DNA from: Lentisphaerota bacterium
GTDB lineage: Bacteria; Verrucomicrobiota; Kiritimatiellia; RFP12; JAAYNR01
NCBI GenBank assembly: GCA_016873675.1
Contig: VGWG01000005.1
Coordinates: 5,648 to 69,647, forward strand
Direction of reading: 5' to 3'
DNA: 64,000 nt
The translations under genes and the position numbers were made by a program. Below the pieces are notes generated by a model, which was given only the letters and a program-made list of their open reading frames with translations, was not told the origin of the DNA and did not search any database. Of this stretch, positions 2,627 through 20,893 are shown piece by piece (the stretch's first letter is position 1; every line of letters starts with the position of its first letter).

Positions 2627-3568
2627 TCAGGCGGCTCCGGGTTCTCCCACTGACTGTGATCGAAGCGGCTGGGCGGGCAGCGGCCTGAGCACCCAGCGCT
2701 TGTTGTACCAGAACCATTGATCGGGGTTTTGGCGGATGGCAGCCTCGACATGCTCCATCACCGTCCGGGTCATGCGGAGGAGGTCGGCATCCCGATCAGC
2801 GGTTGGATCGGCCAAAACGGGGGAATAGGCAACCATGCGATGGCGAAACCAGCCGACACGGCTGAGGATCACGGGCAGCACGGGGACATGCGCGGTGCGC
2901 GCAAATTGGGCCATGCCGCGGCCCAGATTGGCCTGCGCGCCGAGAAACGGAACCAGAAGATCGGGCGTCGGCATCCGCACGTCGGGAAGGATGGCAAACA
3001 CCCCCCGGTGTTGCAGCCGGCGCAGGATGACGCGCAGGACCGATGACCCGCGCTCCAGCACGTCCATGCTGTAGCCACGAATGTGGTTGAGCCAACGGTT
3101 GACATGCGGATTCTTCTGTTTACCCGCGATCGAAAAGATATCAAATCCCGCCTGTTTGCCGGCGACCCCGGCCAAATCCCAGTTGCCCATGTGCGGGACG
3201 GCGATGACGAGTCCGCCGTGCGCCTCGATCAGCGCCTGCATGCGGATCAGGACCTCGTCCAGCCCCTCCACGTGGCGGCGCAGCCAGACGGGCGAGATCC
3301 GGGTCACCCGCATCATTTCCGCCGCATTGAAGAACAGGTTGCGCCACGAGCGCCAGGCGATCCACTCAGCCTGTCGGGGGGTCACCGCGCCGCCGAACAC
3401 GCTGACAATGCGCCGCACCGCCTCGGCCCGGCGGAAGCGGACGACATGGAATCCCACCCCGGCCACACCCCAAGCCAGCGCCAATGCGGCACCGTGAGGC
3501 AGCGCCCGGCATACGCCAGCGGTCGCGCGCAGGGCGAAATATTCGATCAGGTACCGGATGCGTCGCAT
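2627..3568 (-). CDS. Lipid A late acyltransferase / lysophospholipid acyltransferase (LpxL/HtrB family)
   Basis: MRRIRYLIEYFALRATAGV...RFRRAEAVRRI...HMGNWDL...ILPDVR...WFWYNKRW. HtrB/MsbB family motifs (the HxxxxD-like HMGNWD, C-terminal WYxKRW). The ORF-track start at 3772 is an upstream extension; I prefer the Met at 3568. Confidence 0.6.
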   Translation of the reverse strand: MRRIRYLIEYFALRATAGVCRALPHGAALALAWGVAGVGFHVVRFRRAEAVRRIVSVFGGAVTPRQAEWIAWRSWRNLFFNAAEMMRVTRISPVWLRRHVEGLDEVLIRMQALIEAHGGLVIAVPHMGNWDLAGVAGKQAGFDIFSIAGKQKNPHVNRWLNHIRGYSMDVLERGSSVLRVILRRLQHRGVFAILPDVRMPTPDLLVPFLGAQANLGRGMAQFARTAHVPVLPVILSRVGWFRHRMVAYSPVLADPTADRDADLLRMTRTVMEHVEAAIRQNPDQWFWYNKRWVLRPLPAQPLRSQSVGEPGAA

Positions 3569-6405: not shown

Positions 6406-7353
6406 ATGAACAAACCCATTCTCATCATCGGCGACGGCAAGGCCGGGCACGTCAATCAGTCCAAGGCGTTTTGTGACAGCCTCGGCCAGCCGTTCGTGAT
6501 TGCCGACGTCGTCTACCGCGCCAGGTGCTGCAAGGCACTGGCCTATCTGGCTGATCGCTGTCGGCTGAGGCTCGCGTGCCTCTATCGATTCACGGCCCCC
6601 CTTCCTGCGGGCCCCTTCGCGGCCGTGGTCTGCACTGGGTCGACGGCCTTCTATCCCGGCAAAGTCACCGCTCGCCGTCTCGGGATTCCGGTCGCCGCGA
6701 TCCTGAACCCCAGAGGCTGGCGACCCGATTTCGACGTGATTCTCGCGCCCGCCTTCGACAATCCCCGCCCGCGCCCCAACCTCATCACCCTGCCGGTCAA
6801 CCTCACCTCGGTCAACCCGGCGTTCTATGCCGCCGGCGTCGCCGCATTTCGCGAACGACACACGTGGGAAAAGCCCGCCGTCGGCGTCATCATCGGCGGA
6901 CCCAACGACGTGGCCGAAATGACCGCTCGGGGCATGAAGATTCACCTGGATCGCGTATTCGCCGCTACCGAAGGGTGTGAGCGATGGGTCACCACCTCGC
7001 GCCGCACGCCGCCCGAGGTTGAGGCGTTGGTCGATTCCTATCCCTTTGACTACAAGCTCCTGTTCTCACACAATAACTTCAACCCGATCCCCGCCTTCGT
7101 CTCCCTCTGCCACACCCTGTTCGTGACGGCCGACTCGACCGGCATGATCAGCGAGGCGGTCACCCGCGGCAGCGCATCGGTCGAAATCCTCATGACTCTG
7201 CGCGATCCCGCCTCCAAGTTCGCCCGGTTTGTGCGAAACATCGAGACGGCGGGCGCCGCCCATGTCTTCGACGGCGCCTGCGCCGCCGCCCGCACGAAAA
7301 TTGACCTCTCCCCCGCCCTCCGCGCCGCCGCCGCCCGACTGGGGATCGGCTAG
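6406..7353 (+). CDS. ELM1/DUF1022-family protein (putative glycosyltransferase-like)
   Basis: A 315-aa protein MNKPILIIGDGKAGHVNQSKAF...PNLITLP...GVIIGGPN. The pattern matches bacterial ELM1/GtrOC1-type proteins as I recall them. Confidence 0.45.
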   Translation: MNKPILIIGDGKAGHVNQSKAFCDSLGQPFVIADVVYRARCCKALAYLADRCRLRLACLYRFTAPLPAGPFAAVVCTGSTAFYPGKVTARRLGIPVAAILNPRGWRPDFDVILAPAFDNPRPRPNLITLPVNLTSVNPAFYAAGVAAFRERHTWEKPAVGVIIGGPNDVAEMTARGMKIHLDRVFAATEGCERWVTTSRRTPPEVEALVDSYPFDYKLLFSHNNFNPIPAFVSLCHTLFVTADSTGMISEAVTRGSASVEILMTLRDPASKFARFVRNIETAGAAHVFDGACAAARTKIDLSPALRAAAARLGIG

Positions 7354-7596
7354 ACAATCAAGACCGACGGACGCCGCTCGACGCGCGAGATCGTGCGCCA
7401 CCGGGGCGCGGCGGTCGTCCTCGGTGAACGGCCGGACGGGCGCTACGTCTGGGTGCGCCAATACCGCCGCGCCGTCAGCGAGACGCTGCTGGAGGCGGTG
7501 GCCGGCTGTCTGGAGCCGGGCGAGGCGCCCGAGGCCTGCGCGCGCCGCGAGATGGAGGAGGAGAGCGGCTATACCGTGCAGGCTAAAGGGATCTAA
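7354..7596 (+). pseudogene. NUDIX hydrolase gene remnant, truncated at the C-terminus (~80 codons)
   Basis: The full NUDIX box GCLEPGEAPEACARREMEEESGY (GX5EX7REUXEEXGU) is preceded by VVLGERPDGRYVWVRQYR. The ORF stops 7 codons after the box (a normal NUDIX enzyme continues ~60 aa further), and an in-frame stop sits immediately upstream at 7351-7353. Confidence 0.55.
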
Positions 7597-7657
7597 AAAA
7601 TAGTGCGTTTGCCCTTGGCGCTTGAACCGCCAGCCCTGGCAATGTTATAGTGACCGC

Positions 7658-9715
7658 ATGAGCACCACACGAAGAATCGTTGTCACCTCCGCGCTGCCGT
7701 ATGCCAATGGCGACATCCACATCGGCCATCTGGTGGAGTATGTGCAGACCGATTTCTGGGTCCGCTTTCAAAACATGCGCGGCCATGCGTGTGTCTATGT
7801 CTGCGCCGACGACACCCACGGCACGCCGATCATGGTCCGCGCCCGCAACGAGGGGATCACCCCCGAGGCGCTGATCGCCCGCAGCCACGAGCAGCATGTC
7901 CGCGACTTCACCGATTTCGAGGTGGCCTTTAACCACTACGGCTCGACCAACTGCGAAGAGAATCGCGCCTTCAGCACCCGCATCTTTTCCCGGATGGAGT
8001 CGGGCGGCCACGTCTCCTCCCGCCTCGTCCCCCAACTCTACTGCGAGCACGACGGCATGTTCCTTCCCGACCGCTTCGTCAAGGGCGGCTGCCCCGCCTG
8101 CGGCGCGCCCGGTCAGTACGGCGATTCGTGCGACACCTGCGGCGCGACCTATGCCGCCGAAGAGCTGAAGGAACCGGCCTGTACCGTCTGTGGCCGCCCC
8201 CCCGTGACGCGCGACAGCGAACACCTCTTCTTCGAACTCGACCACTTCCGCGATTACCTCCAGACCTGGATTCCGGCCCATACCGCCAAGGACGTGGCGA
8301 ACAAGCTGCTGGAATGGTTCGGCGAGTCGCTGCGCGGGTGGGACATTTCGCGCGACACGCCCTATTTCGGCTTTGAGATCCCCGGCCACCCCGGCAAGTT
8401 CTTTTATGTCTGGGTCGATGCGCCGATCGGCTACATGGCCTCGCTGGAGAATTGGTGCAAGCAGAACAACGCGCAGTTCGAGGACTGGTGGAACAACCCC
8501 GATGTCGAACTCGTCCACTTCATCGGCAAGGATATCGTCCGATTCCACTGCCTCTTTTGGCCCGCTATGCTGGCCTGCAGCGGGTTCAAGGGCCCCAATC
8601 AGGTCTTCGTCCACGGATTTCTGACCGTCAATGGCGAGAAGATGAGCAAATCCAAGGGGACGTTCATCAGCGCGCGAACCTTTCTGGACCATCTGGAGGC
8701 GCAAACCCTCCGCTTCTACTATGCCTGCAAGCTCAACGGCACGACCGACGATGTTGATCTCAACTTCGACGATTTCATCAACCGCGTCAACTCCGATCTG
8801 GTCGGCAAGATCACCAACCTCGCCTCGCGCGGCGCGCAGATGCTCCATAAGCATCTCGACGGCAAGGCTGGCGTGTGTGACGCCGCAGGCGCCGAGGTGC
8901 TCGCTCACGCGCAAGGCCGCGCCGACGCCATCGCCGACGCCTATGAAAAGCGCGACTTCGCGCGCGTGATGGTCGAGGTGCGCGACCTCGCCGACCGCGC
9001 CAACCAATACTTTGACGCCCAGGCGCCCTGGGCGCTGATCAAACGCGACCCCGAGGCCACCCGCCGCGTGCTCACCGCCACACTCAACCTCTTCCGCACC
9101 CTCGCGATCTACCTCAAGCCGGTCCTGCCTGGCTACGCTGCCAAGGTCGAGACACTCTTCGGCGAGCCACCCTATCGCTGGGCCGACGCCCAAACGCGCG
9201 TCGAGAACCGGGCGATCGCGCCGTATGCCTACCTCGCCACGCGGGTCGAACGCGAACCCATTGATCGCATGATCGAGGCCAGCCGGAGCCGCGCGCAACC
9301 CCCCGCTCCACACACCCACACACCCACGCACCCACACACTCACACACCCACTCCCACACCCCCGGCAAAGCCGCTCGCCGCGCCAGCGATCATTCCGTTT
9401 GAGACTTTTGCGCAAACCGATTTGCGGGTCGCGCGGGTGCTCTCGGCCGAAACGGTTGAGGGCTCCGACAAGCTCCTGCGCTTGATGCTCGATCTGGGCG
9501 ATGGCAAACCGCGCCAAGTCTTTTCGGGTATCCGCAAGGCTTATGCGCCTGAAACGCTGGTCGGCCGCAGCGTCGTGGCGGTCGCCAACCTCGCGCCCCG
9601 CAAGATGCGCTTCGGCGTGTCCGAGGGGATGGTTCTCGCCGCGTCCAATCCCGATGGCACGCTCTTCCTCGTCACTCCCGACCCCGGGGCCGCTCCCGGC
9701 GCATCCGTGGCCTGA
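7658..9715 (+). CDS. metG: Methionine--tRNA ligase with C-terminal EMAP/Trbp111-type tRNA-binding domain
   Basis: HIGH motif ([12 protein letters not shown]), KMSKS (EKMSKSKG), the zinc knuckle CPACGA...CDTCG, and a C-terminal [15 protein letters not shown]...MVLA domain. An unusual His/Thr/Pro linker [22 protein letters not shown] separates the two. Confidence 0.92.
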
Positions 9716-9753
9716 ACAGCCTATTTCTCACTGACCGCCGACACTCGCATACC

Positions 9754-10773
9754 ATGAACTACTCCCTCACGCTGACCAAACTGATCGCTCGCATCGACCT
9801 GACTGAGGGCGAGGCCGCCGACTTGGTGGACGCCATCCTCGCAGGGGAGCTGACCGAGGCACAGATCGGCGCGGCTCTGGCTGCGGCTGCGGCCAAGGGC
9901 GAGTCGGTCGCCGAGGTTGCCGGCGCGGCCCGAGCCATGCGCCGCCGCGCGACGCGCATCCAGCCGCTGGTCGCCAACACCCTCGACACCGTGGGGACCG
10001 GCGGCGACGGCGGCATGACCTTCAACGTTTCAACGACGGTTGCCTTTGTCGCCGCAGGCGCGGGGGCGGTCGTCGCCAAGCACGGCAACCGCGCCAGTTC
10101 GGGCAAGAGCGGCAGCGCTGACTGCCTCGAGCAGCTCGGCTTCAACCTGGCCGCCGAGCCCGACCTCATGGAACAGGCGCTGAACGACATCGGCATCTGC
10201 TTCCTTTTTGCCCAGAACTTTCACCGCGCCATGAAATTCGCCGCCCCGGTTCGGAAGCAGCTCGGCGTCCGCACCCTCTTCAACCTCCTCGGCCCGCTCA
10301 CCAACCCGGCGGGGGCGTCCTGCCAGTTGATCGGCGTCTTCAAGCCCGAGCTCACCGAGATGTTCGCCCACGTGCTCAAAATCCTCGGCTCGCGCCGCGT
10401 CCTCGTCGTCCACGGCCATGACGGCATGGACGAGATCACGCTCACAGCCCCCACGCGCTGCTCGGAGCTGAAAGACGGCGTCATCCGCACCTATGACATT
10501 GATCCGACCCGCTATTTCGGCGATTTCTGCGCCCCCGACGAGCTTGCGGGCGGCACCCCCGCCGACAACGCCGCCATCACCCGCGGCATGCTTCGCGGCG
10601 ACATCCGCGGCCCCAAGCGCAACATCGTTTTGATCAACGCTGCCGCCTCGCTGCTCGCCGCCGGTTTGGCCGGATCGATCGAGGAGGGCATCCGAAAAGC
10701 CGAGGCTTCCATCGACTCCGGCGCCGCCCTGGACAAGCTGGATCGCCTGATCGCCTATTCGCGCCAACCATGA
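9754..10773 (+). CDS. trpD: Anthranilate phosphoribosyltransferase
   Basis: DTVGTGGDGGMTFNVST, HGNRASSGKSGSAD and LGVRTLFNLLGPLTNP are TrpD signatures. Confidence 0.9.
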   Translation: MNYSLTLTKLIARIDLTEGEAADLVDAILAGELTEAQIGAALAAAAAKGESVAEVAGAARAMRRRATRIQPLVANTLDTVGTGGDGGMTFNVSTTVAFVAAGAGAVVAKHGNRASSGKSGSADCLEQLGFNLAAEPDLMEQALNDIGICFLFAQNFHRAMKFAAPVRKQLGVRTLFNLLGPLTNPAGASCQLIGVFKPELTEMFAHVLKILGSRRVLVVHGHDGMDEITLTAPTRCSELKDGVIRTYDIDPTRYFGDFCAPDELAGGTPADNAAITRGMLRGDIRGPKRNIVLINAAASLLAAGLAGSIEEGIRKAEASIDSGAALDKLDRLIAYSRQP

Positions 10774-12288: not shown

Positions 12289-12364
12289 GGCGGGTTAGCT
12301 CAGTTGGTAGAGCAACGGAATCATAATCCGTCTGTCGGGGGTTCAAGTCCCTCACCCGCCACCA
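12289..12364 (+). tRNA. tRNA-Met (anticodon CAT; could be tRNA-Ile2/lysidine type)
   Basis: GGCGGGTTAGCTCAGTTGGTAGAGCAACGGAATCATAATCCGTCTGTCGGGGGTTCAAGTCCCTCACCCGCCACCA. The 7-bp acceptor is GGCGGGT/ACCCGCC, the D-arm AGCTCAGTTGGTAGAGC, the anticodon stem ACGGA/TCCGT with loop ATCATAA, the T-arm GGGGGTTCAAGTCCCTC, and CCA is encoded. It is followed by a hairpin AAAACCCCGGCGTTGCTGGGGGTTTTT. Confidence 0.85.
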
Positions 12365-12640
12365 GCCAAAAAGCCCCACAAAACCCCGGCGTTGCTGGGG
12401 GTTTTTCATTTTACGCCCCGGTTTGCGGGCAAGCCCCGGTTGAGTGGCGTTCGTTCTTGTCCGATTCGTTTCTGACGTGGTATCCTTTCCGGTCTATGAC
12501 CGTGTCAGCATTCATTTCCAAGTGGCGTAAGGTGGAATTGAAGGAGCGCTCCGCCGTTTACGGCTGGTCCGCCGACCTCACCGACGATGCAATCCTCGAA
12601 CGGCTTATGCGTTGAATTCGGGGAATGCAAAAGGATGCCC

Positions 12641-14098
12641 ATGTTTGAACAAGCCTTCAAAAACATCGACGACGTCCTCTGGAAAGACGCTGGCTGCACC
12701 AGCGAACTCGATTACACCGAGCAGACCTCCTGGTTGCTCTTCCTGAAGTACCTCGACGCCCTGGAGACCGATCGCGCCACGGCGGCCGCCCTGAACGGCA
12801 AGACCTATACCCACATCCTCGACGCCCCCTTTCGCTGGGCCACGTGGGCCGCCCCCAAGGGCAAGGACGGCAGGATCGACCACAACACCGCCCTCTCCAG
12901 CGACGACCTCATCGCCTTCGTCAACGGCAAGCTCTTTCCCTACCTGCACGGCTTCAAGGCCAAGGCCACCGGCCCGAACACCATCGAATACAAGATCGGC
13001 GAAATCTTCGGCGAGATCAAGAACCGCATCCAGAGCGGCTACAACCTGCGCGAGATCATTGATCACATCGACGAACTCCGCTTCCAGTCCCAGACCGAGA
13101 AGCACGAGCTCTCGCACCTCTACGAAGCCAAGATCAAAAACATGGGCAACGCCGGGCGCAACGGCGGCGAGTATTACACCCCGCGCCCGCTCATCCGCGC
13201 CATCGTCGCCGTCACCGCGCCCCGGCTCGGTGAGACCCTCTGCGACCCCGCCGTCGGCTCGGCCGGCTTCCTCTGCGAATCCTTCGAGTACCTCCGTGTC
13301 CAGAACCCCCAGCGCACCACCGCCCAGGACCGCACCCTGCAAGAGCGCACCTTTTACGGGAAGGAAAAGAAGTCCCTCGCCTACGTCATCGCGATCATGA
13401 ACATGATCCTGCACGGCATCGAGGCGCCCAACATCATCCACACCAACACGCTCGCCGAGAACCTCGCCGACGTGCAGGAAAAGGACCGCTTCGACATCAT
13501 CCTCGCCAATCCGCCCTTCGGCGGCAAGGAGCGCAAGGAGGTGCAGCAGAACTTCCCCATCCGCACCGGCGAGACCGCCTTCCTCTTCCTCCAGCACTTC
13601 ATCAAATTCCTCAAGGCCGGCGGCCGCGCCGGCGTCGTCATCAAGAACACCTTCCTCTCCAACACCGACAACGCCTCCGTCAGCCTGCGCCGGAAGCTGC
13701 TGGAGGAGTGCGACCTCCACACCGTGCTCGACTGCCCCGGCGGCACGTTCATCGGCGCCGGCGTCAAGACCGTGGTCCTCTTCTTCCAGAAGGGCGCCAA
13801 GACGCGCAAGGTCTGGTTCTACCAGCTCGACCCCGGCCGCAACATGGGCAAGACCAACCCGCTCAACGACGCCGACCTCGCCGAGTTCGTCGCGCTCCAG
13901 AAGACCAAGGCCGACTCGCCCAAGAGCTGGAGCGTGGACGCGGCGGCCATCGATCCGCAGACCTTTGACCTCTCCGTCAAGAACCCCAACGCTGGCGAGG
14001 CGGTCGCCCACCGCACCCCGCAGGAGATCATGGACGAAATCGCCGCGCTGGATGCCGAGAGCGCCGAGGTGCTGGCCAACATCCGAGGGCTGCTATGA
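12641..14098 (+). CDS. hsdM: Type I restriction-modification N6-adenine DNA methyltransferase subunit
   Basis: MFEQAFKNIDDVLWKDAGCTSELDYTEQTSWLLFLKYLD is the HsdM N-domain. Motif I is DPAVGSAGFL and motif IV is NPPFGG. Alternative in-frame starts are 12635 and 12587. The stop overlaps the next gene. Confidence 0.9.
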   Translation: MFEQAFKNIDDVLWKDAGCTSELDYTEQTSWLLFLKYLDALETDRATAAALNGKTYTHILDAPFRWATWAAPKGKDGRIDHNTALSSDDLIAFVNGKLFPYLHGFKAKATGPNTIEYKIGEIFGEIKNRIQSGYNLREIIDHIDELRFQSQTEKHELSHLYEAKIKNMGNAGRNGGEYYTPRPLIRAIVAVTAPRLGETLCDPAVGSAGFLCESFEYLRVQNPQRTTAQDRTLQERTFYGKEKKSLAYVIAIMNMILHGIEAPNIIHTNTLAENLADVQEKDRFDIILANPPFGGKERKEVQQNFPIRTGETAFLFLQHFIKFLKAGGRAGVVIKNTFLSNTDNASVSLRRKLLEECDLHTVLDCPGGTFIGAGVKTVVLFFQKGAKTRKVWFYQLDPGRNMGKTNPLNDADLAEFVALQKTKADSPKSWSVDAAAIDPQTFDLSVKNPNAGEAVAHRTPQEIMDEIAALDAESAEVLANIRGLL

Positions 14099-15162
14099 GC
14101 GAACTGCCGGCCAGGGACTACGGCGACTTTCTGGTTGCAGTCAAGACCCGCATCCGGCAGGCGCAATACCAAGCGTTGCGGGCGACGAACAAGGAGCTTC
14201 TGACGCTCTACTGGGACCTGGGCGAGTCCATCCACCGCAAGCAGGATGCGCTGGGATGGGGCCGATCCGTGGTTGAGACGCTTGCCAGCGACCTCCAGGC
14301 TGAGTTCCCGGGGCGGAACGGTTTCTCAGCCCGCAACCTCTGGAACATGAGGGACTTCTACACCGAATATTCCGCCAGGCCAAAACTGCAACCGCTGGTT
14401 GCAGAAATCAGTTGGGCTAAAAACCTGGTCATCATGGCCCGTTGCAAGGATGACTTGGAGAGGGAGTTCTACCTCCGCGCCACCGCGCGCTTCGGCTGGA
14501 CCAAGGCCGTGCTCCAGCACCAGATCGACAACAAGAGCTACGAGAAATACCTGCTCAACCAGACCAACTTCGACGCGACCCTGCCCGCCGAGATCAAGGC
14601 GCAGGCGGCGCTGGCGGTCAAGGACCACTACACCTTCGATTTTCTCGACCTGGCCGAGGAGCACTCCGAGCGCGAACTGGAGCGGTCCCTGGTCAACAAC
14701 ATCCGCCGATTCCTCGCCGAAATGGGCGGTGCCTTCACCTTTGTCGGCAACCAGCACCGCCTGGAGGTGGGCGGACAGGAATACTTCATCGACCTCCTGC
14801 TGTTCCACCGCCGCCTCCGCTGCCTGGTGGCGATCGAGCTGAAGATCGGCAGTTTCGAGCCGGAGCACAAGGGCAAGATGGAGTTCTACCTGGAGGCGCT
14901 CGACGCGCAGGAGCGCATCGACGGCGAAAACCCGCCCGTCGGCATCATCATCTGCCGCGACAAAAACAAGACCGTGGTCGAATACGCCCTGCGCACCGCG
15001 GGCCGCCCCATCGGCGTCGCCACCTACACCGTCGTCCCCCAACTGCCCGCAACCTACCGCGACCAGCTCCCCAGTCCCGAAGCCATCGCCGAACGCCTCC
15101 GCCTGTGGGCCGCCGAGAGCGCCCGACAAGCCGCCGCTGACCAGGCGGAGGGGGCGGGATGA
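14095..15162 (+). CDS. PDDEXK-nuclease-fold protein YhcG/DUF1016, embedded in the type I R-M operon
   Basis: A 355-aa protein with ...YWDLG..I...W..NLVIMARCKD..EREFYL...GWTKAVLQHQI...FDFLDL...ELE..L...FLAEMGGAFTFVGNQHRLEVGGQEYFIDLLLFHRRLRCLVAIELKIG, the DUF1016 pattern. Its location between hsdM and hsdS is classic. Confidence 0.75.
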   Translation: MSELPARDYGDFLVAVKTRIRQAQYQALRATNKELLTLYWDLGESIHRKQDALGWGRSVVETLASDLQAEFPGRNGFSARNLWNMRDFYTEYSARPKLQPLVAEISWAKNLVIMARCKDDLEREFYLRATARFGWTKAVLQHQIDNKSYEKYLLNQTNFDATLPAEIKAQAALAVKDHYTFDFLDLAEEHSERELERSLVNNIRRFLAEMGGAFTFVGNQHRLEVGGQEYFIDLLLFHRRLRCLVAIELKIGSFEPEHKGKMEFYLEALDAQERIDGENPPVGIIICRDKNKTVVEYALRTAGRPIGVATYTVVPQLPATYRDQLPSPEAIAERLRLWAAESARQAAADQAEGAG

Positions 15163-16322
15163 AGAAGGGGTGGCAGACAAAGACGCTGGGGGACGTCTGC
15201 GCTTTCGACAAAGCGCAAGGCATCCACCGGGGTTTGCCTTACGTCGGGCTTGAACACATCGAGTCTCACACAGCGCGTTTTATCGGCTCAAGCGAGCCGC
15301 AGCCTGTCAAAAGCTCGACGTTTCGATTTTCCGACGAGCACGTTCTCTACGGGCGGCTTCGACCTTATCTGAACAAGGCACTCGCGCCGGATTTCGAGGG
15401 CCATTGCTCAACGGAAATCTTCCCACTGAAGCCGCGCCCTGAACTCTCGCGGGAATATCTGCTGTTTTGGCTGCTGGCTGATGAGACGTGTGACCGCATC
15501 AACGAGACTTGCACGGGCGCACGAATGCCACGCGCTCAGATGAACGACGTGCTCGGCTTTGAGATTCCCGTCCCCCCCCTCCCCGAACAGCGGCGGATCG
15601 TCGGCCTGCTCGACGAAGCGTTTGCGGGCCTCGCCACCGCCAAAGCCAACGCCGAAAAGAACCTCCAGAACGCCCGCGCCCTCTTCGAAAGCCACCTCCA
15701 ATCCGTCTTCGCTGACCAATGGCATGTTGGTAAGTTGGTTACACTCTCGGAGTTGGCCACTGACATCACGGACGGCGACCATCTGCCACCGCCGAAGTCT
15801 CCAACCGGTGTACCATTCATCACCATAGGAAACATCGTGAAGGAGACCCGCGAGATTGATTTTAGCGACACCTTCATGGTGCCTCGCGCTTACTTTGACG
15901 CTCTTAAAACCTACAAGAAGCCTCGGCGGGGAGACGTTCTTTATACCGTCACCGGTTCATTCGGAATCCCCGTCATTGTCCGTGATGACGCCGAATTTTG
16001 CTTCCAGCGGCACATTGGCCTTGTTCGTCCGAAGCCCGAGATAAGCAGTTCCTGGCTCTACTATCTCCTCATGTCTCCACAGTTGCTCAAACAGGCAAAT
16101 GAAGGTGCCACGGGCACGGCACAAAAGACTGTTTCATTAAAACTCCTCCGCAGTTTCATGGTGCCCAAGGTTGCGCCGAACCAACAGAGGCAAGCTGTGG
16201 GAAAACTTGACGCCCTCAATGCCGAAACCCGCCACCTCGCCGCCATCTACTCCCGCAAGCTCGCGGTGCTGGAGGCGTTGAAGAAGTCGCTGCTGCACCA
16301 AGCCTTCACCGGAGAACTCTGA
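15159..16322 (+). CDS. hsdS: Type I R-M specificity subunit (two target-recognition domains)
   Basis: The conserved central repeat is LPPLPEQRRIVGLLDEAFAGL and the C-terminal repeat is LRSFMVPKVAPNQQRQAVGKLDAL...LKKSLLHQAFTGEL, separated by two variable TRDs. It is translationally coupled on both sides. Confidence 0.85.
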   Translation: MKKGWQTKTLGDVCAFDKAQGIHRGLPYVGLEHIESHTARFIGSSEPQPVKSSTFRFSDEHVLYGRLRPYLNKALAPDFEGHCSTEIFPLKPRPELSREYLLFWLLADETCDRINETCTGARMPRAQMNDVLGFEIPVPPLPEQRRIVGLLDEAFAGLATAKANAEKNLQNARALFESHLQSVFADQWHVGKLVTLSELATDITDGDHLPPPKSPTGVPFITIGNIVKETREIDFSDTFMVPRAYFDALKTYKKPRRGDVLYTVTGSFGIPVIVRDDAEFCFQRHIGLVRPKPEISSSWLYYLLMSPQLLKQANEGATGTAQKTVSLKLLRSFMVPKVAPNQQRQAVGKLDALNAETRHLAAIYSRKLAVLEALKKSLLHQAFTGEL

Positions 16323-16324
16323 CC

Positions 16325-16999
16325 ATGCCCAATGCCCCAATCACAGAACGCACTTCCAATCCTGCCGAAATCACCACGGTCGGCATCGATGTGGGCGGCG
16401 AACGCAAGGGTTTTCACGCCATCGCGATTACCAACGGAGATTATTCGAGCCACCTTGCCACAAAGGACGTGCAGGAACTTTCCTGCTGGTGTCGTGATAC
16501 GGTGCGAGCACAAGTCATCGCTGTGGATGCACCGTGCGGCTGGAGCATCGACGGACATTCACGCCCCGCCGAGCGCGAGCTAATGCAAAAGAGCATCTGG
16601 TGTTTCTCAACGCCGACGCGAGAGAAGGCAGTCGGGCATCCCACCAATTACTTCGGCTGGATGCTGCGGGGCGAGGCGTTGTTTCGTGCGCTCGAAAATG
16701 ACTTCCCCCTTTGTCGCAAACTGCCCGCAACAAACCGGAAGTGCTGCTTCGAGACTTTCCCGCACGCCATCACCTGGCATCTGCGGGGTGGCAATGCCGA
16801 TGCTCGGCGTAAGCGTGAACAACGCCGGGCCTTGCTGACGCAGGCGAGAATCGACATCACCGGGTTGACAAACATCGACCTCGTTGATGCCGCGCTCTGC
16901 GCCCTCACGGCTAACCGCGCCGCCACGGGCGGTGCGTGCGTGAGTTTCGGTGAGCAGAACACCGGATTGATCATCGTACCCACCCAACCCAACCTATGA
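16325..16999 (+). CDS. DUF429-like predicted RNase-H-fold nuclease, embedded in the R-M operon
   Basis: A 224-aa protein with VGIDVGGERKGFHAIAI...VIAVDAPCGW...DLVDAALCALTA. Size and motif spacing match DUF429 as I recall it. It starts 3 nt after the hsdS stop. Confidence 0.5.
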   Translation: MPNAPITERTSNPAEITTVGIDVGGERKGFHAIAITNGDYSSHLATKDVQELSCWCRDTVRAQVIAVDAPCGWSIDGHSRPAERELMQKSIWCFSTPTREKAVGHPTNYFGWMLRGEALFRALENDFPLCRKLPATNRKCCFETFPHAITWHLRGGNADARRKREQRRALLTQARIDITGLTNIDLVDAALCALTANRAATGGACVSFGEQNTGLIIVPTQPNL

Positions 17000-17106
17000 A
17001 CACCACCGAACCCCAGCGCCTCACCGCCATCTGCACCCGAAAGCGCGCCACGCTGGGGCAGTTGAAGAAGTCGGTGCTGCACCAAGCCTTCACCGGAGAA
17101 CTTTAG
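16996..17106 (+). pseudogene. Orphan 3' fragment of a second hsdS allele (36 codons)
   Basis: It encodes MNTTEPQRLTAICTRKRATLGQLKKSVLHQAFTGEL. The hsdS C-terminus at 16250-16322 reads ...LAAIYSRKLAVLEALKKSLLHQAFTGEL. The final ~43 nt are near-identical (gaagaagtcgGtgctgcaccaagccttcaccggagaactTtag versus ...tcgCtg...actCtga). Confidence 0.65.
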
Positions 17107-17116
17107 GAGACGCCCC

Positions 17117-18157
17117 ATGAGCAGGGAAAAGAAACTCCAGATTCGTAACAGCACCGCCGAGTTCCTGATCTTCACCCGGCAGGCGGGCGAGGACGGCATC
17201 GAGGTGCGCGTCGAAGACGAGACCGTCTGGCTGACGCAGAAGCTGATGGCGGCGCTGTTCGAGGTGACCGTTCCGACCATCAGCGAGCATCTGGCCAACC
17301 TATATGCCCAAGGTGAAATCTCCGAACCGGCAACTCTTCGGAATTTCCGAACAGTTCAAAAGGAGGGTGCCCGCGATGTCGCCCGGAATATGGATTTCTA
17401 CAACCTCGACGCCATCATCGCCGTAGGCTTCCGGGTGAACTCCGTCCGCGCCATCCAGTTCCGGCAATGGGCCACAGGCGTCTTGCGGGATTTCGCGATC
17501 CGCGGCTACGTGCTGGACAAGGAGCGGCTGAAGAACGGGGCGTTCCTGAGCAAGGAGTATTACGAAAACCTGCTGGCGGAGATTCGCGAGATCCGGGCGA
17601 GCGAGCGGAAGTTCTACCAAAAGATCACCGACATCTACGCCACGGCGATGGATTACAGCCCGGAGGCGGAGACGACCCAGACATTTTTCGCCACAGTGCA
17701 GAACAAGCTGCATTTCGCCATCCATGGCCGTACCGCCGCCGAACTGATTGTGGAACGGGCGGACAGCAAAAAGGAGCGCATGGGCCTGACGACCTGGAAG
17801 AACGCGCCGCACGGGAAGATCCTCAAGCCGGACGTCGTGGTGGCAAAGAACTACCTCACCGAAAAGGAACTGAAGTCACTGGATCGGATCGTGACGATGT
17901 ATCTGGATTACGCGGAAGATCAAGCCGAGCGCGGCATCCCAATGACCATGCGGGACTGGGCGACCAAGCTGAACGCGTTCCTCCAGTTCAACGAACGGGA
18001 CATTCTCGATCATCCGGGGAAGGTGAGCCAGGCGGTGGCCAAGGCCTTTGCCGAAAGCGAGTTCGAGAAGTACCGGATCGTACAGGATCGCCTGTTTGAG
18101 TCGGACTTCGACCGGCATATCAGGAAGGCTTTGGAAGGCGGCAAGGAAGAATCATGA
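17117..18157 (+). CDS. rhuM: RhuM-family protein (R-M/island-associated DNA-binding protein)
   Basis: ETVWLTQKLMAALFEV, FYNLDAIIAVGFRVNS, RASERKFYQKITDIYATAMDYS and IVTMYLDYAEDQAERG closely follow the RhuM consensus. RBS AGGAGA is present. Confidence 0.8.
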   Translation: MSREKKLQIRNSTAEFLIFTRQAGEDGIEVRVEDETVWLTQKLMAALFEVTVPTISEHLANLYAQGEISEPATLRNFRTVQKEGARDVARNMDFYNLDAIIAVGFRVNSVRAIQFRQWATGVLRDFAIRGYVLDKERLKNGAFLSKEYYENLLAEIREIRASERKFYQKITDIYATAMDYSPEAETTQTFFATVQNKLHFAIHGRTAAELIVERADSKKERMGLTTWKNAPHGKILKPDVVVAKNYLTEKELKSLDRIVTMYLDYAEDQAERGIPMTMRDWATKLNAFLQFNERDILDHPGKVSQAVAKAFAESEFEKYRIVQDRLFESDFDRHIRKALEGGKEES

Positions 18158-20646
18158 ACGAAGCCGAAACCAGAGCCGAGCACATCGACCCCGCACTTGC
18201 CGCGGCGGGTTGGGGCGTCGTTGAGGGGAGCCGCATCCGGCGCGAGTACCCGATCGCGCCGGGCCGCATCGAGGGGCTCGGCCGGCGCGGCAAGCCGCTC
18301 ATCGCCGACTACATCCTGGAGTACCGCAACCGCAAGCTGGCCGTGGACGAGGCCAAGGCATGGGATGTTGAGTTGACCGAGGGGGTGGCGCAGGCCAAGA
18401 ACTACGCCGGCAAGCTCGCCGTCCGTTTCGCCTACGCCACCAACGGCCGTGGCATCTACGCCGTGGACATGCAGACCGGCAGGGAAGGCGAGATCGCCCG
18501 CTATCCGACCCCCGACGAACTCTGGGCCATGACCTTCGCCGGGGAGAACGCTTGGCGGGACCGGTTCACGGCCGTGCCGTTCGAGGACAAGGGCGGCTCG
18601 CACCCGACCCGGTACTATCAGGACACCGCCATCGAGCGGGTGATGGATGCCATCGCGGCGAACCAGCCGCGCATCCTGCTCACGCTCGCCACGGGCACGG
18701 GCAAGACCTTCATCGCCTTCCAGATCGCCTGGAAGCTCTTCCACTCCCGCTGGAACCTCTCCCGCGAGCCTTCCCGCCGGCCGCGCATCCTGTTCCTCGC
18801 CGACCGGAACATCCTGGCGAACCAGGCCTACAACGCCTTCTCCGCCTTCCCCGAGGATGCGCTGGTGCGGATCGAGCCGGACGACATCCGCAGGAAGGGC
18901 AAGGCGCCGAAGAACGGCAGCCTGTTCTTCACCATCTTCCAGACCTTCATGACCTCCGGCGCCCAGGCGTCCGATGAAGTCAATACGGTCAACGCGGTCA
19001 AACCCGCCGTCGCCCCGCCGCCGATCTATCCGCTGGCGGAGGACGAGGTCGCCCCCTTGGACATGGCGGCGGAACCGCCCGCGCTCTTCGGCGAATACCC
19101 GCCGGACTTCTTCGACTTCATCGTCATTGACGAGTGCTACCGCGGCGGCGCGAACGACGAGAGCGCCTGGCGCGGCATCCTCGAATACTTCGCCCCGGCG
19201 GTGCAGATGGGGATGACCGCCACGCCCAAACGCGAGGAGAACGTGGACACCTACCGCTACTTCGGCGACCCGGTCTACATCTACTCCCTCAAGGACGGCA
19301 TCAACGACGGCTTCCTGACGCCATTCAAGGTGAGGCAAATCCAGACCACGCTTGACGAGTACGTCTACACGCCCGATGATTGCGTTTTGGAAGGAAGCAT
19401 CGAAGAGGGCAAGCTTTACGACGAGGAAGACTTCAATCGCATCATCGAGATCAAGGAACGGGAGAAGAAGCGGGTTGAAATCTTCATGGCGCTGATTGAC
19501 CAAAAGGAAAAGACCCTCGTCTTTTGTGCGAGTCAAATTCACGCGTTGGCCGTCCGCGACCTGATCAACCAGATGAAGACCAGCGCCGACCCGAACTACT
19601 GCCAGCGGGTGACGGCGAACGACGGCGCGCTCGGCGAGCAGCACCTGCGCGACTTCCAGGACAACGAGAAGACGATCCCGACGGTCTTGACCACGTCGCA
19701 GAAGCTTTCGACCGGCGTGGACGCCCGCAACGTCCGCAACATCGTCCTGATGCGGCCCATCAGGCGGATCATCGAGTTCAAGCAGATCATCGGGCGCGGC
19801 ACGCGGCTTTACGACGGCAAGGACTACTTCACGATCTACGACTTTGTGAAGGCGTGCCAGCATTTCAGCGATCCCGAGTGGGACGGCGAGCCGCTCGAAC
19901 CGGAGCCCTGCCCGAAGTGCGGCTGCCAGCCGTGCGCGTGCGTAAAGCCGCCGCCGCAAGCGTGCCCCGTCTGCGGCCAGGCGCCCTGCGTCTGCCCGCC
20001 GGGTCCCTGCCCGAGATGCGGCCAGCGGCCATGCGTATGCAAAAAGCGGGAAAGGGTGAAGGTAAAACTGGCGGACGGCAAGGAGCGCACCATCCAGCAC
20101 ATGATGATGACCAGCTTCTGGCACCCCGACGGCACGCCCATGTCCGCGCAGCAGTTCATGGAACTGCTCTTCGGCAAGCTCCCGGACTTCTTCAAAGACG
20201 AAGCCGAACTCCGCGCCATCTGGAGCGCTCCCGACACGCGCAAGAAGCTCTTGCAAGGGCTGGCCGAGAAAGGTTTTGGCCACGACCAACTATCCGAAAT
20301 GCAGAAGATCATCGACGCCGAAAAGAGCGACCTGTTCGATGTGCTGGCCCATGTGGCCTACGCCTTGCCGCCGGTCACCCGCGAAGTGCGGGCCGCGAAC
20401 GCCAAAGTCCACATCAACGCCCAGTTCAATGCCAAGCAGCAACTCTTCCTTGATTTTGTGCTCCAGCACTACATCACGGTCGGCGTGGAAGAACTGGACC
20501 AGGAAAAACTCACGCCGCTGCTCCTCCTCAAATACCACAACTCCCTCGCGGATGCCGTCGCTGACCTCGGCGGCCGGCCCGAAGAAATCAACAAAACCTT
20601 CGCCGGTTTCCAGAAGTATCTTTATCAACAAACGGCTGCGGCGTGA
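18154..20646 (+). CDS. hsdR: Type I restriction endonuclease R subunit (EcoEI-like C-terminal domain) with a Cys-rich insertion
   Basis: N-terminal HSDR_N (ETRAEHIDPALAAAGW...IADYILEY), helicase motifs (LATGTGKT, DEC, MTATP, TGVD, QIIGRGTR) and a C-terminal EcoEI_R_C-like region. Between them sits 3x CPxCGQxPCxC (CPKCGCQPCACV / CPVCGQAPCVCP / CPRCGQRPCVCK), encoded by a ~45-nt tandem repeat at 19905-20040. The start overlaps the rhuM stop. Confidence 0.85.
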   Translation: MNEAETRAEHIDPALAAAGWGVVEGSRIRREYPIAPGRIEGLGRRGKPLIADYILEYRNRKLAVDEAKAWDVELTEGVAQAKNYAGKLAVRFAYATNGRGIYAVDMQTGREGEIARYPTPDELWAMTFAGENAWRDRFTAVPFEDKGGSHPTRYYQDTAIERVMDAIAANQPRILLTLATGTGKTFIAFQIAWKLFHSRWNLSREPSRRPRILFLADRNILANQAYNAFSAFPEDALVRIEPDDIRRKGKAPKNGSLFFTIFQTFMTSGAQASDEVNTVNAVKPAVAPPPIYPLAEDEVAPLDMAAEPPALFGEYPPDFFDFIVIDECYRGGANDESAWRGILEYFAPAVQMGMTATPKREENVDTYRYFGDPVYIYSLKDGINDGFLTPFKVRQIQTTLDEYVYTPDDCVLEGSIEEGKLYDEEDFNRIIEIKEREKKRVEIFMALIDQKEKTLVFCASQIHALAVRDLINQMKTSADPNYCQRVTANDGALGEQHLRDFQDNEKTIPTVLTTSQKLSTGVDARNVRNIVLMRPIRRIIEFKQIIGRGTRLYDGKDYFTIYDFVKACQHFSDPEWDGEPLEPEPCPKCGCQPCACVKPPPQACPVCGQAPCVCPPGPCPRCGQRPCVCKKRERVKVKLADGKERTIQHMMMTSFWHPDGTPMSAQQFMELLFGKLPDFFKDEAELRAIWSAPDTRKKLLQGLAEKGFGHDQLSEMQKIIDAEKSDLFDVLAHVAYALPPVTREVRAANAKVHINAQFNAKQQLFLDFVLQHYITVGVEELDQEKLTPLLLLKYHNSLADAVADLGGRPEEINKTFAGFQKYLYQQTAAA

Positions 20647-20711: not shown

Positions 20712-20893
20712 GGGACGGGCCTGAATGGCGTGAATGGCGCTAAGTTAAGGGGCTATTGCCATCTTAATCGTAATCGTAATCTTGATCTTAATATTAATCT
20801 TAATCTCTTGGTGGAGAACGGATTACGATTATGATTATGATTATGATTATGATCGGAAGCATCGCTTTACTTAGCGCCATTCGGGACGGGCCT
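20712..20893. mobile_element. MITE-like non-coding element: 10-bp direct repeats flanking 14-bp terminal inverted repeats and an AT-rich palindromic core
   Basis: Direct repeat GGGACGGGCC at 20712-20721 and 20884-20893. Inverted repeat GAATGGCGCTAAGT (20731-20744) versus CTTAGCGCCATTC (20870-20882). The core is (TAATC/GATTA)-type pentamer runs arranged as an imperfect palindrome around a 15-nt centre, locally AT-rich in a 65% GC genome. It lies 70 bp after the hsdR stop. Confidence 0.5.

Follow-up and report, generated by a model that had tools for sequence, protein, structure and literature searches.

Why does a gene for a protein of the DUF429 family lie between the specificity and restriction genes of a type I restriction-modification (R-M) operon, and why is it followed by a second copy of the end of hsdS? 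These questions are raised by a stretch of 64,000 nucleotides (nt) from a Lentisphaerota bacterium (contig VGWG01000005.1, positions 5,648 to 69,647; hereafter the window). Positions 12641–20646 of the window form a single block on the + strand with seven open reading frames (ORFs), as read from the ORF list together with Pfam, and the same seven were recovered by an independent gene call on the source contig. Their coordinates and identities agree with those given in an earlier note, which had been made from the sequence alone. The order is hsdM, DUF1016/YhcG, hsdS, DUF429, a 36-codon remnant of the hsdS tail, rhuM and hsdR; product lengths are given in amino acids (aa):

12641..14098, + strand: hsdM, type I methyltransferase subunit, 485 aa (Pfam N6_Mtase, 2.3e-61, and HsdM_N; PADLOC MTase_I, 6e-163, full length)
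14095..15162, + strand: embedded gene 1, DUF1016_N and YhcG_C, PD-(D/E)xK nuclease-like, 355 aa (Pfam, 1.8e-45 and 3.4e-60)
15159..16322, + strand: hsdS, intact specificity subunit with two target-recognition domains, 387 aa (Pfam Methylase_S, two stretches)
16222..16318, + strand: conserved hsdS 3′ tail (C-terminal conserved region), upstream copy of a 97-nt direct repeat
16325..16999, + strand: embedded gene 2, DUF429, RuvC-like (RNase H-like superfamily) nuclease candidate, 224 aa (Pfam DUF429)
16996..17106, + strand: hsdS-tail remnant, 36-codon ORF, with the second repeat copy at 17006–17102 (sequence read; repeat search)
17117..18157, + strand: embedded gene 3, RhuM family protein, 346 aa (Pfam Virulence_RhuM, 2.7e-113)
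18154..20646, + strand: hsdR, restriction/translocase subunit of the EcoAI/FtnUII (type IB) family, 830 aa (Pfam ResIII and EcoEI_R_C)

The block is probably a co-transcribed type IB R-M operon that has collected three unrelated single-gene cassettes. With a probability of about 0.5, we favour a reading in which the DUF429 protein would be a stand-alone, metal-dependent nuclease acting as an autonomous effector, which hitch-hikes in the R-M operon and entered it at the hsdS tail. Genes embedded in type I operons are already known from Payne et al. (2024) and from TgvAB and PrrC. New here are a DUF429 lineage tied to EcoAI-like systems and a tail-scar footprint of cassette insertion, both modest additions.

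The DUF429 protein and its place among relatives

The assignment of the 224-aa product to DUF429 and to the RNase H fold, proposed in the earlier note, was upheld on both counts. Pfam detects DUF429 (PF04250) alone in this single-domain protein, at 7.5e-27 and 94.9 bits (cut-off 23), aligning residues 20–205 with profile positions 1–207 of 214. An AlphaFold2 model is confident (predicted local distance difference test, pLDDT, 91.7; predicted template modelling score, pTM, 0.88), and as modelled the protein has a RuvC-like fold. In fold comparison the model matches the RuvC Holliday-junction resolvases (4ld0, 6lw3), with identity of only 8–16% across resolvases, followed by a poxvirus resolvase, the YqgF-like domain of Tex, chloroplast MOC1, phage RuvC, an IS110-type transposase and terminase nuclease domains. 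D22 and D68 lie at the ends of strands 1 and 4, and D185/D188 in the last long helix, a RuvC-type layout in which residues were matched to RuvC by secondary-structure position, not by superposition. This layout fits the work of Majorek et al. (2014; PMC3985635), who assigned DUF429 to clade D of the RNase H-like superfamily. The marks of that clade are all present: an RNase H-like/RuvC-like fold, conserved acidic positions in strands 1 and 4, and a C-terminal helix in reversed orientation. Membership of the RuvC resolvase family at the level of sequence was considered and rejected: the family profile retrieved no Protein Data Bank (PDB) chain at E up to 1, hhalign against Escherichia coli RuvC gave a probability of 0.4%, and the link is one of fold comparison. 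From the RuvC, poxvirus and MOC1 resolvases the DUF429 protein differs in being about 60 residues longer, with extra helices, four invariant cysteines and no ruvAB context.

An alignment of 50 homologs of 60–79% identity bears out the conservation of putatively catalytic acidic residues for which a check had been proposed: D22, D68, E83, E143, D185 and D188 are invariant. So are four cysteines (C56, C71, C93 and C192), which are kept in 103 of the 107 loci surveyed below and could bind a metal or a cluster; we know of no RuvC enzyme with their equivalents. With E limited to 0.001, a scan of 1.84 billion representative proteins returned only 693 clusters, and a limit of 1e-30 left 122; a few homologs carry fused REase-ARP/PD-(D/E)xK, DUF4145 or PCC domains.

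The locus resembles those behind the 'guilt by embedding' candidates of PADLOC, which are single same-strand genes within type I R-M operons. Two of its embedded genes are such candidates, as expected from the earlier statement that DUF1016 and RhuM are seen near type I systems elsewhere: the DUF1016/YhcG protein is PDC-S02 (8.1e-144, residues 5–338 on profile positions 7–340 of 346) and the RhuM protein is PDC-S05 (1.4e-157, residues 6–340 on positions 4–336 of 342). The DUF429 protein matches the PDC-S44 model PDLC05019 weakly, at 3.1e-12 and 44 bits in two stretches across the core, and all 50 aligned relatives match PDC-S44 weakly but consistently, the best at 1.2e-15. It differs from PDC-S44 in length (about 224 aa, versus models of 259–277 positions) and in that its lineage is tied to EcoAI-like type IB systems. 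Taken together, the profile matches indicate a protein homologous to PDC-S44 that belongs to a separate clade or lineage. The arrangement had been put forward as one that was not recognised, but it is less unusual than this suggests: type I operons with embedded defence candidates have been described (Payne et al., 2024, bioRxiv 10.1101/2024.01.29.577857; PMC11411939), and PADLOC already lists a DUF429-related candidate, PDC-S44.

Relatives were surveyed at 107 loci (27 from genomes and 80 from metagenomes) encoding proteins 44–79% identical, which collapse into 80 clusters at 95% identity; L numbers below denote individual loci. R-M genes were detected by tblastn with the R-M proteins of the window itself, a search that may miss other type I families beside solo copies. 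The context counts rest on tblastn and on Pfam-annotated gene calls, the latter agreeing for five proteins, and many of the contigs are short. An EcoAI-like hsdS upstream and/or hsdR downstream, on the same strand, accompanies the gene in 34 of the 80 clusters. A further four have nothing but fragments of EcoAI-like R-M genes nearby, and 16 are solo, their flanks reaching 2 kb or more upstream and 2.5 kb or more downstream without any EcoAI-like gene. The embedded share amounts to 63% of the classifiable clusters, all in one R-M family. The spacing is often tight: in 22 of 31 clusters no more than 52 nt separate the hsdS stop from the start of DUF429, and hsdR starts 0–15 nt past the end of DUF429 in eight of the 24 clusters that have hsdR downstream. 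Independent Pfam-annotated gene calls show the minimal form, hsdM-hsdS-DUF429-hsdR. Embedded loci are scattered over the whole neighbour-joining tree of DUF429, interleaved with solo clades, and their hosts include Nitrospirota, Verrucomicrobiota, Cyanobacteria, Proteobacteria, Planctomycetota, Actinobacteria and others. The earlier note had allowed that the place of the gene in the operon might be incidental. Judged by gene context, it is not incidental for this subfamily: 34 of the 80 clusters have the gene between the hsdS and hsdR of one and the same EcoAI-like family. Of the 18 solo loci, 17 retain all the acidic residues and all 18 the cysteines, and because solo copies persist in this state the DUF429 protein need not be a recruited R-M subunit.

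Other genes use the same place. In relatives, Fic/Doc proteins, MNT/HEPN and YoeB/YefM pairs, a Bro-N protein (PADLOC PDC-S13) and HNH and NucS-like proteins are encoded between hsdS and hsdR. The interval further codes for a zinc-ribbon protein, a predicted membrane protein without a family match, and a protein whose match to a polyvalent-protein kinase family falls below threshold; by its gene content the interval is a general cassette hotspot. At L031, the gene upstream of DUF429 (6460–7998) joins a nucleotidyltransferase (MNT-like) domain to Methylase_S in a 512-aa product. In a second stretch of the same locus (8791–10002), rhuM is cut to its first 84 codons; behind it come a further tail fragment and a Bro-N gene (PDC-S13).

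No DUF429 homolog was found in phage genomes, and plasmids yielded only distant homologs, from Burkholderia, in unrelated contexts. One of these, on the Burkholderia multivorans plasmid NZ_CP020399.1 (L114, 1561–7642), is the terminal gene of a same-strand run that begins with an SbcD-like DNA repair exonuclease, a YhaN family gene and an HD-domain gene, possibly a repair or defence module for another DUF429 branch. At L116, a second DUF429 gene (9555–10220) is split into two ORFs of 95 and 123 aa in an island rich in toxin-antitoxin genes, which also holds an intact DUF429 gene downstream of hsdR; the pair suggests duplication of the gene followed by decay of one copy.

The duplicated hsdS tail

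The gap of about 117 nt between DUF429 and rhuM, described earlier as holding an hsdS remnant at 16996–17106 and the rhuM ribosome-binding site, is confirmed in each respect. It spans 117 nt (17000–17116), and its GGAG overlaps the stop codon of the remnant, 6 nt ahead of the rhuM ATG. The remnant is one copy of a 97-nt direct repeat, 84% identical between 16222–16318 and 17006–17102. No other repeat in the 9.5-kb region exceeds 49 nt. Its ORF ends ...LKKSVLHQAFTGEL, as HsdS does, and the tail consensus ...L..LKKSLL..AF.G.L is common to 20 distinct functional tails.

The leftover tail pointed out in the earlier note is thus a real remnant, but it is not a one-off. Tail remnants follow DUF429 in at least eight loci (the window, L034, L031, L002, L049, L051, L107 and L108), and at L002, L016 and L018 a tail copy stands between a different inserted segment and DUF429; many embedded DUF429 loci have no downstream tail. 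The remnants after DUF429 each carry 2–6 residues never found at those positions in the 20 functional tails (three in the window), and that of L002 contains an in-frame stop. Over 96 nt, each remnant is 0.71–0.93 identical to the hsdS tail of its own locus and at most 0.72 identical to other remnants, in seven of seven loci. The own tail is at least as close as that of any other locus in four of the seven (the window, L034, L031 and L108); at L049, L051 and L107 the tail of another locus is marginally closer. We conclude from these comparisons that the remnant is a decaying scar, probably of recombination, and recurrent rather than singular. A conserved small gene travelling with DUF429 was considered and rejected, on the closeness to the local tail in 7/7 loci, the odd residues and the in-frame stop.

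An extra partial hsdS beside a type I operon, and recombination in conserved hsdS regions, are also features of phase-variable hsdS loci. The present repeat differs from these in being a direct, tail-only and decaying copy, without a recognition domain, inverted repeats or a nearby recombinase. A phase-variable hsdS shufflon was accordingly rejected as a candidate, the 97-nt tail repeat being direct only, with no inverted copy, and no recombinase is among the called genes of the 20-kb neighbourhood.

How the scar may have arisen is best seen in two pairs of sister loci, L049/L051 and L107/L108. In both, nucleotide homology begins at the start of the hsdS tail, spans DUF429 and the remnant, and stops at the stop codon of the remnant, while the upstream recognition domains and the downstream genes are unrelated. 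These exact end-points, a tail on either side of DUF429, suggest that the tail-DUF429-tail arrangement was made by homologous recombination at the conserved 3′ end of hsdS. In L049/L051, a mid-tail patch has moreover been exchanged between the upstream and downstream copies. DUF429 would then have entered by homologous recombination at this end, with tail-DUF429-tail acting as a cassette; integration at the tail would rebuild an intact hsdS and leave a second tail copy downstream, which later decays, as the remnant at 16996–17106 may have done. The simplest route would be a Campbell-type or ends-in integration of a segment with a tail and DUF429. The notion of the hsdS tail as a dedicated DNA site was rejected, as the frequency of identical codons at identical residues (0.51–0.59 in the tail versus 0.60 in hsdM) gives no excess of synonymous conservation over hsdM.

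A different junction is found at L101, where DUF429 is followed by a chimeric 91-codon ORF (3137–3412), a Fic/Doc-like gene and an ORF that matches the first 409 residues of HsdR (tblastn) up to the contig end. In the chimera, the first 44 hsdR codons are fused to an hsdS-tail-like end. It is a mirror image of the tail scar, with a duplicated hsdR head, and the junction points to homology-anchored illegitimate recombination as a likely second route.

Payne et al. (2024; bioRxiv 10.1101/2024.01.29.577857) describe defence genes that are nested within operons of type I, BREX, DISARM and Hma systems. To account for embedding, the parts of that preprint drawn on here, its discussion included, offer only the idea of a 'genomic sink'; they name no recombination route and describe no tail-scar footprint. 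The tail scars provide a concrete and checkable footprint of gene embedding in type I operons.

Readings of the locus

In the favoured reading, DUF429 would be an autonomous anti-phage or conflict effector riding in the R-M operon as a second line of attack, and it would benefit from shared transcription and from horizontal transfer with the operon. Given its fold, its likely targets would be branched or recombination-type DNA intermediates. We arrive at this reading because solo copies are conserved, because defence and toxin-antitoxin genes are its neighbours, and because homologs are fused to nuclease domains of conflict systems. Independent defence genes that work inside a type I operon without HsdR have a precedent in TgvAB, an experimentally validated GmrSD-like type IV system in the type I R-M operon of Vibrio cholerae VPI-2 (PMC11411939). 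TgvAB differs in being a two-protein, modification-dependent system of another fold, whereas DUF429 is a single candidate RuvC-fold gene.

Several points weigh against this reading. In the literature that mentions DUF429 we found no experiment tying the family to phage defence, and no biochemical data. Majorek et al. (PMC3985635) judged the genomic contexts of DUF429 to be conserved, and the family unlikely to be mobile. The protein is a single domain without an obvious sensor for telling phage from host DNA, and its match to PDC-S44 is weak, at 44 bits. The survey was seeded from DUF429 and not from R-M loci, so that it says nothing on the share of EcoAI-like systems that carry DUF429, and 26 of the 80 clusters have flanks too short to classify. 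Distant DUF429 genes (37–43% identity) lie on Burkholderia replicons in non-defence or repair-like contexts. The recombination route is drawn from end-points only, and the L101 junction is better explained by illegitimate recombination.

The main rival, which we consider unlikely, is that DUF429 does not act autonomously but in concert with the type IB enzyme, either as a PrrC-like guard that the R-M complex keeps inactive until a phage anti-restriction protein disables the complex, or as a helper that processes branched or stalled DNA where type I enzymes cut. PrrC combines an ABC-ATPase with an RNase that acts on tRNA-Lys. This anticodon nuclease (EcoprrI, type IC) is almost always found within a type I operon (Payne et al., bioRxiv 10.1101/2024.01.29.577857), and it sets the precedent for an effector that lies inside a type I system and is under its control. 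It serves as a model of a guard coupled to an R-M complex, and the analogy is functional only: in Pfam searches DUF429 has no ABC-ATPase or anticodon-nuclease domain, and it also occurs solo. Such coupling would fit an association that is specific to family and position, confined as it is to the hsdS-hsdR interval of EcoAI-like systems, and a spacing that suggests tight translational coupling (2 nt after hsdS here; 0–15 nt before hsdR in 8/24 clusters). It is harder to reconcile with 16 non-redundant solo clusters that retain the acidic residues without a nearby type IB gene, and with the other unrelated cassettes of the same interval, which make it a general hotspot.

The Burkholderia homologs, beside SbcD/YhaN/HD or metabolic genes, and the solo copies beside ORFs that resemble, by eye only, sulfatase, lgt and a metallo-beta-lactamase-fold protein, would instead suit a housekeeping or DNA-repair nuclease whose place in the operon is incidental hitch-hiking. 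We regard this as improbable, given that 63% of the classifiable clusters are embedded in one R-M family, that the distribution across phyla is patchy, like that of horizontally transferred accessory genes, and that the neighbours are mostly toxin-antitoxin genes and defence candidates.

The tail copies allow for readings in which the element moves itself. A self-propagating tail-DUF429-tail cassette might be a resolvase-type homing module whose RuvC-like nuclease acts on recombination intermediates at the hsdS 3′ end, and which moves from one type IB R-M system to another and regenerates an intact hsdS each time, with the hsdS tail (and the hsdR head) as attachment points of an integron-like array of defence cassettes; this is decidedly improbable. 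Slightly more doubtful still is a selfish, homing-like tail-DUF429-tail element, whose nuclease would promote the insertion of its own gene at the 3′ end of hsdS while the host gains nothing. Against homing, tail copies also trail genes that encode no nuclease (L002, L018), constraint on the nucleotides of the tail does not go beyond that of coding (codon identity 0.51–0.59 versus 0.60 in hsdM), many embedded copies lack a downstream tail, and solo copies persist without tails.

Least credible of all is a functional remnant, be it a silent part of hsdS for specificity switching or a small protein that mimics the C-terminal helix of HsdS: its intact 36-codon ORF with ATGA overlap, and a 35-codon ORF called at the equivalent place in L031 (whose DUF429 protein, P0070, is 68% identical to that of the window), are outweighed by the want of a target-recognition domain, the direct rather than inverted repeat with no recombinase gene nearby, the never-seen residues and the one in-frame stop, the greater closeness to the local hsdS tail than to one another in 7/7 loci, and the many loci without a remnant.

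If the effector reading is true, a RuvC-fold single-gene nuclease would join the anti-phage repertoire, and a Pfam family that has been without a function since 2014 would acquire one. Owing to the tie to one R-M family, a small operon is enough to test both the add-on and the PrrC-like guard hypotheses directly. In practical terms the value is modest: the source is a genome bin of an uncultured member of the Lentisphaerae, and everything past gene identity and genomic context is inference. The identical DUF429 protein is recorded from a Lentisphaerae genome bin and from a 69-kb JGI contig.

The operon and its surroundings

By full-length profile matches to HsdM, HsdS and HsdR the type IB (EcoAI-like) R-M system looks complete, since the PADLOC type I models span HsdM and HsdS over their full lengths. 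HsdM is 73–90% identical to the complete HsdM of related loci. HsdS matches PADLOC Specificity_I at 3e-51, residues 7–387 aligning with profile positions 3–387 of 387, and HsdR matches NCBIfam NF046051 at 5.4e-234 and 779 bits (cut-off 550), residues 1–825 aligning with model positions 1–768.

The junctions between the genes had been described as mostly overlapping, with DUF429 to rhuM as the only uncoupled pair. ATGA overlaps were indeed read in the sequence at hsdM/DUF1016, DUF1016/hsdS and DUF429/remnant, and rhuM and hsdR overlap by 4 nt according to their ORF coordinates only; hsdS and DUF429, however, do not overlap and are separated by a 2-nt spacer. From hsdM to hsdR no terminator-like site was detected on the + strand, except for one weak match within hsdS.

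The block is flanked by a tRNA gene and an LpxR-family gene, and its GC content is below that of the upstream trp genes. Two features of the region complete the list:

12289..12364, + strand: tRNA-Met (CAT) (ARAGORN; Rfam tRNA, 69.8 bits)
19900..20047, + strand: three tandem repeats of about 45–49 nt inside hsdR (repeat search), whose translation gives the Cys-rich motif CPxCG(C/Q)xPCxC

The tRNA-Met, which alone was matched in the Rfam scan, forms the left edge of a lower-GC island that contains the operon (GC 0.56–0.66 across the operon versus 0.65–0.72 upstream). No integrase is among the genes called around the block. An att-like repeat of the 3′ end of the tRNA-Met gene was considered as the island boundary and rejected, as that end has no other copy within the window.

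Between tRNA-Met and hsdM, a 39-codon ORF (MTVSAFISKWRKVELKERSAVYGWSADLTDDAILERLMR) at 12497–12615 resembles the joined N- and C-terminal ends of a large MmeI/PglX-type methyltransferase. It looks like a deletion scar of an earlier defence gene, by a single weak tblastn match (E 0.09) to the first part of a gene annotated as MmeI.

The Cys-rich repeats of HsdR sit in the linker between the helicase and the C-terminal EcoEI_R_C domains and lengthen the protein by about 60 residues over the NCBIfam model. The HsdR proteins of L002 and L018 share the motif, whereas that of L104 lacks it, and the repeats may form a variable, zinc-ribbon-like insert. Directly past the hsdR stop (20732–20882) lies an AT-rich inverted repeat without an Rfam match, whose 61-nt arms are 77% complementary and are composed of runs of TAATCG/TAATCT hexamers and the complement GATTAT.

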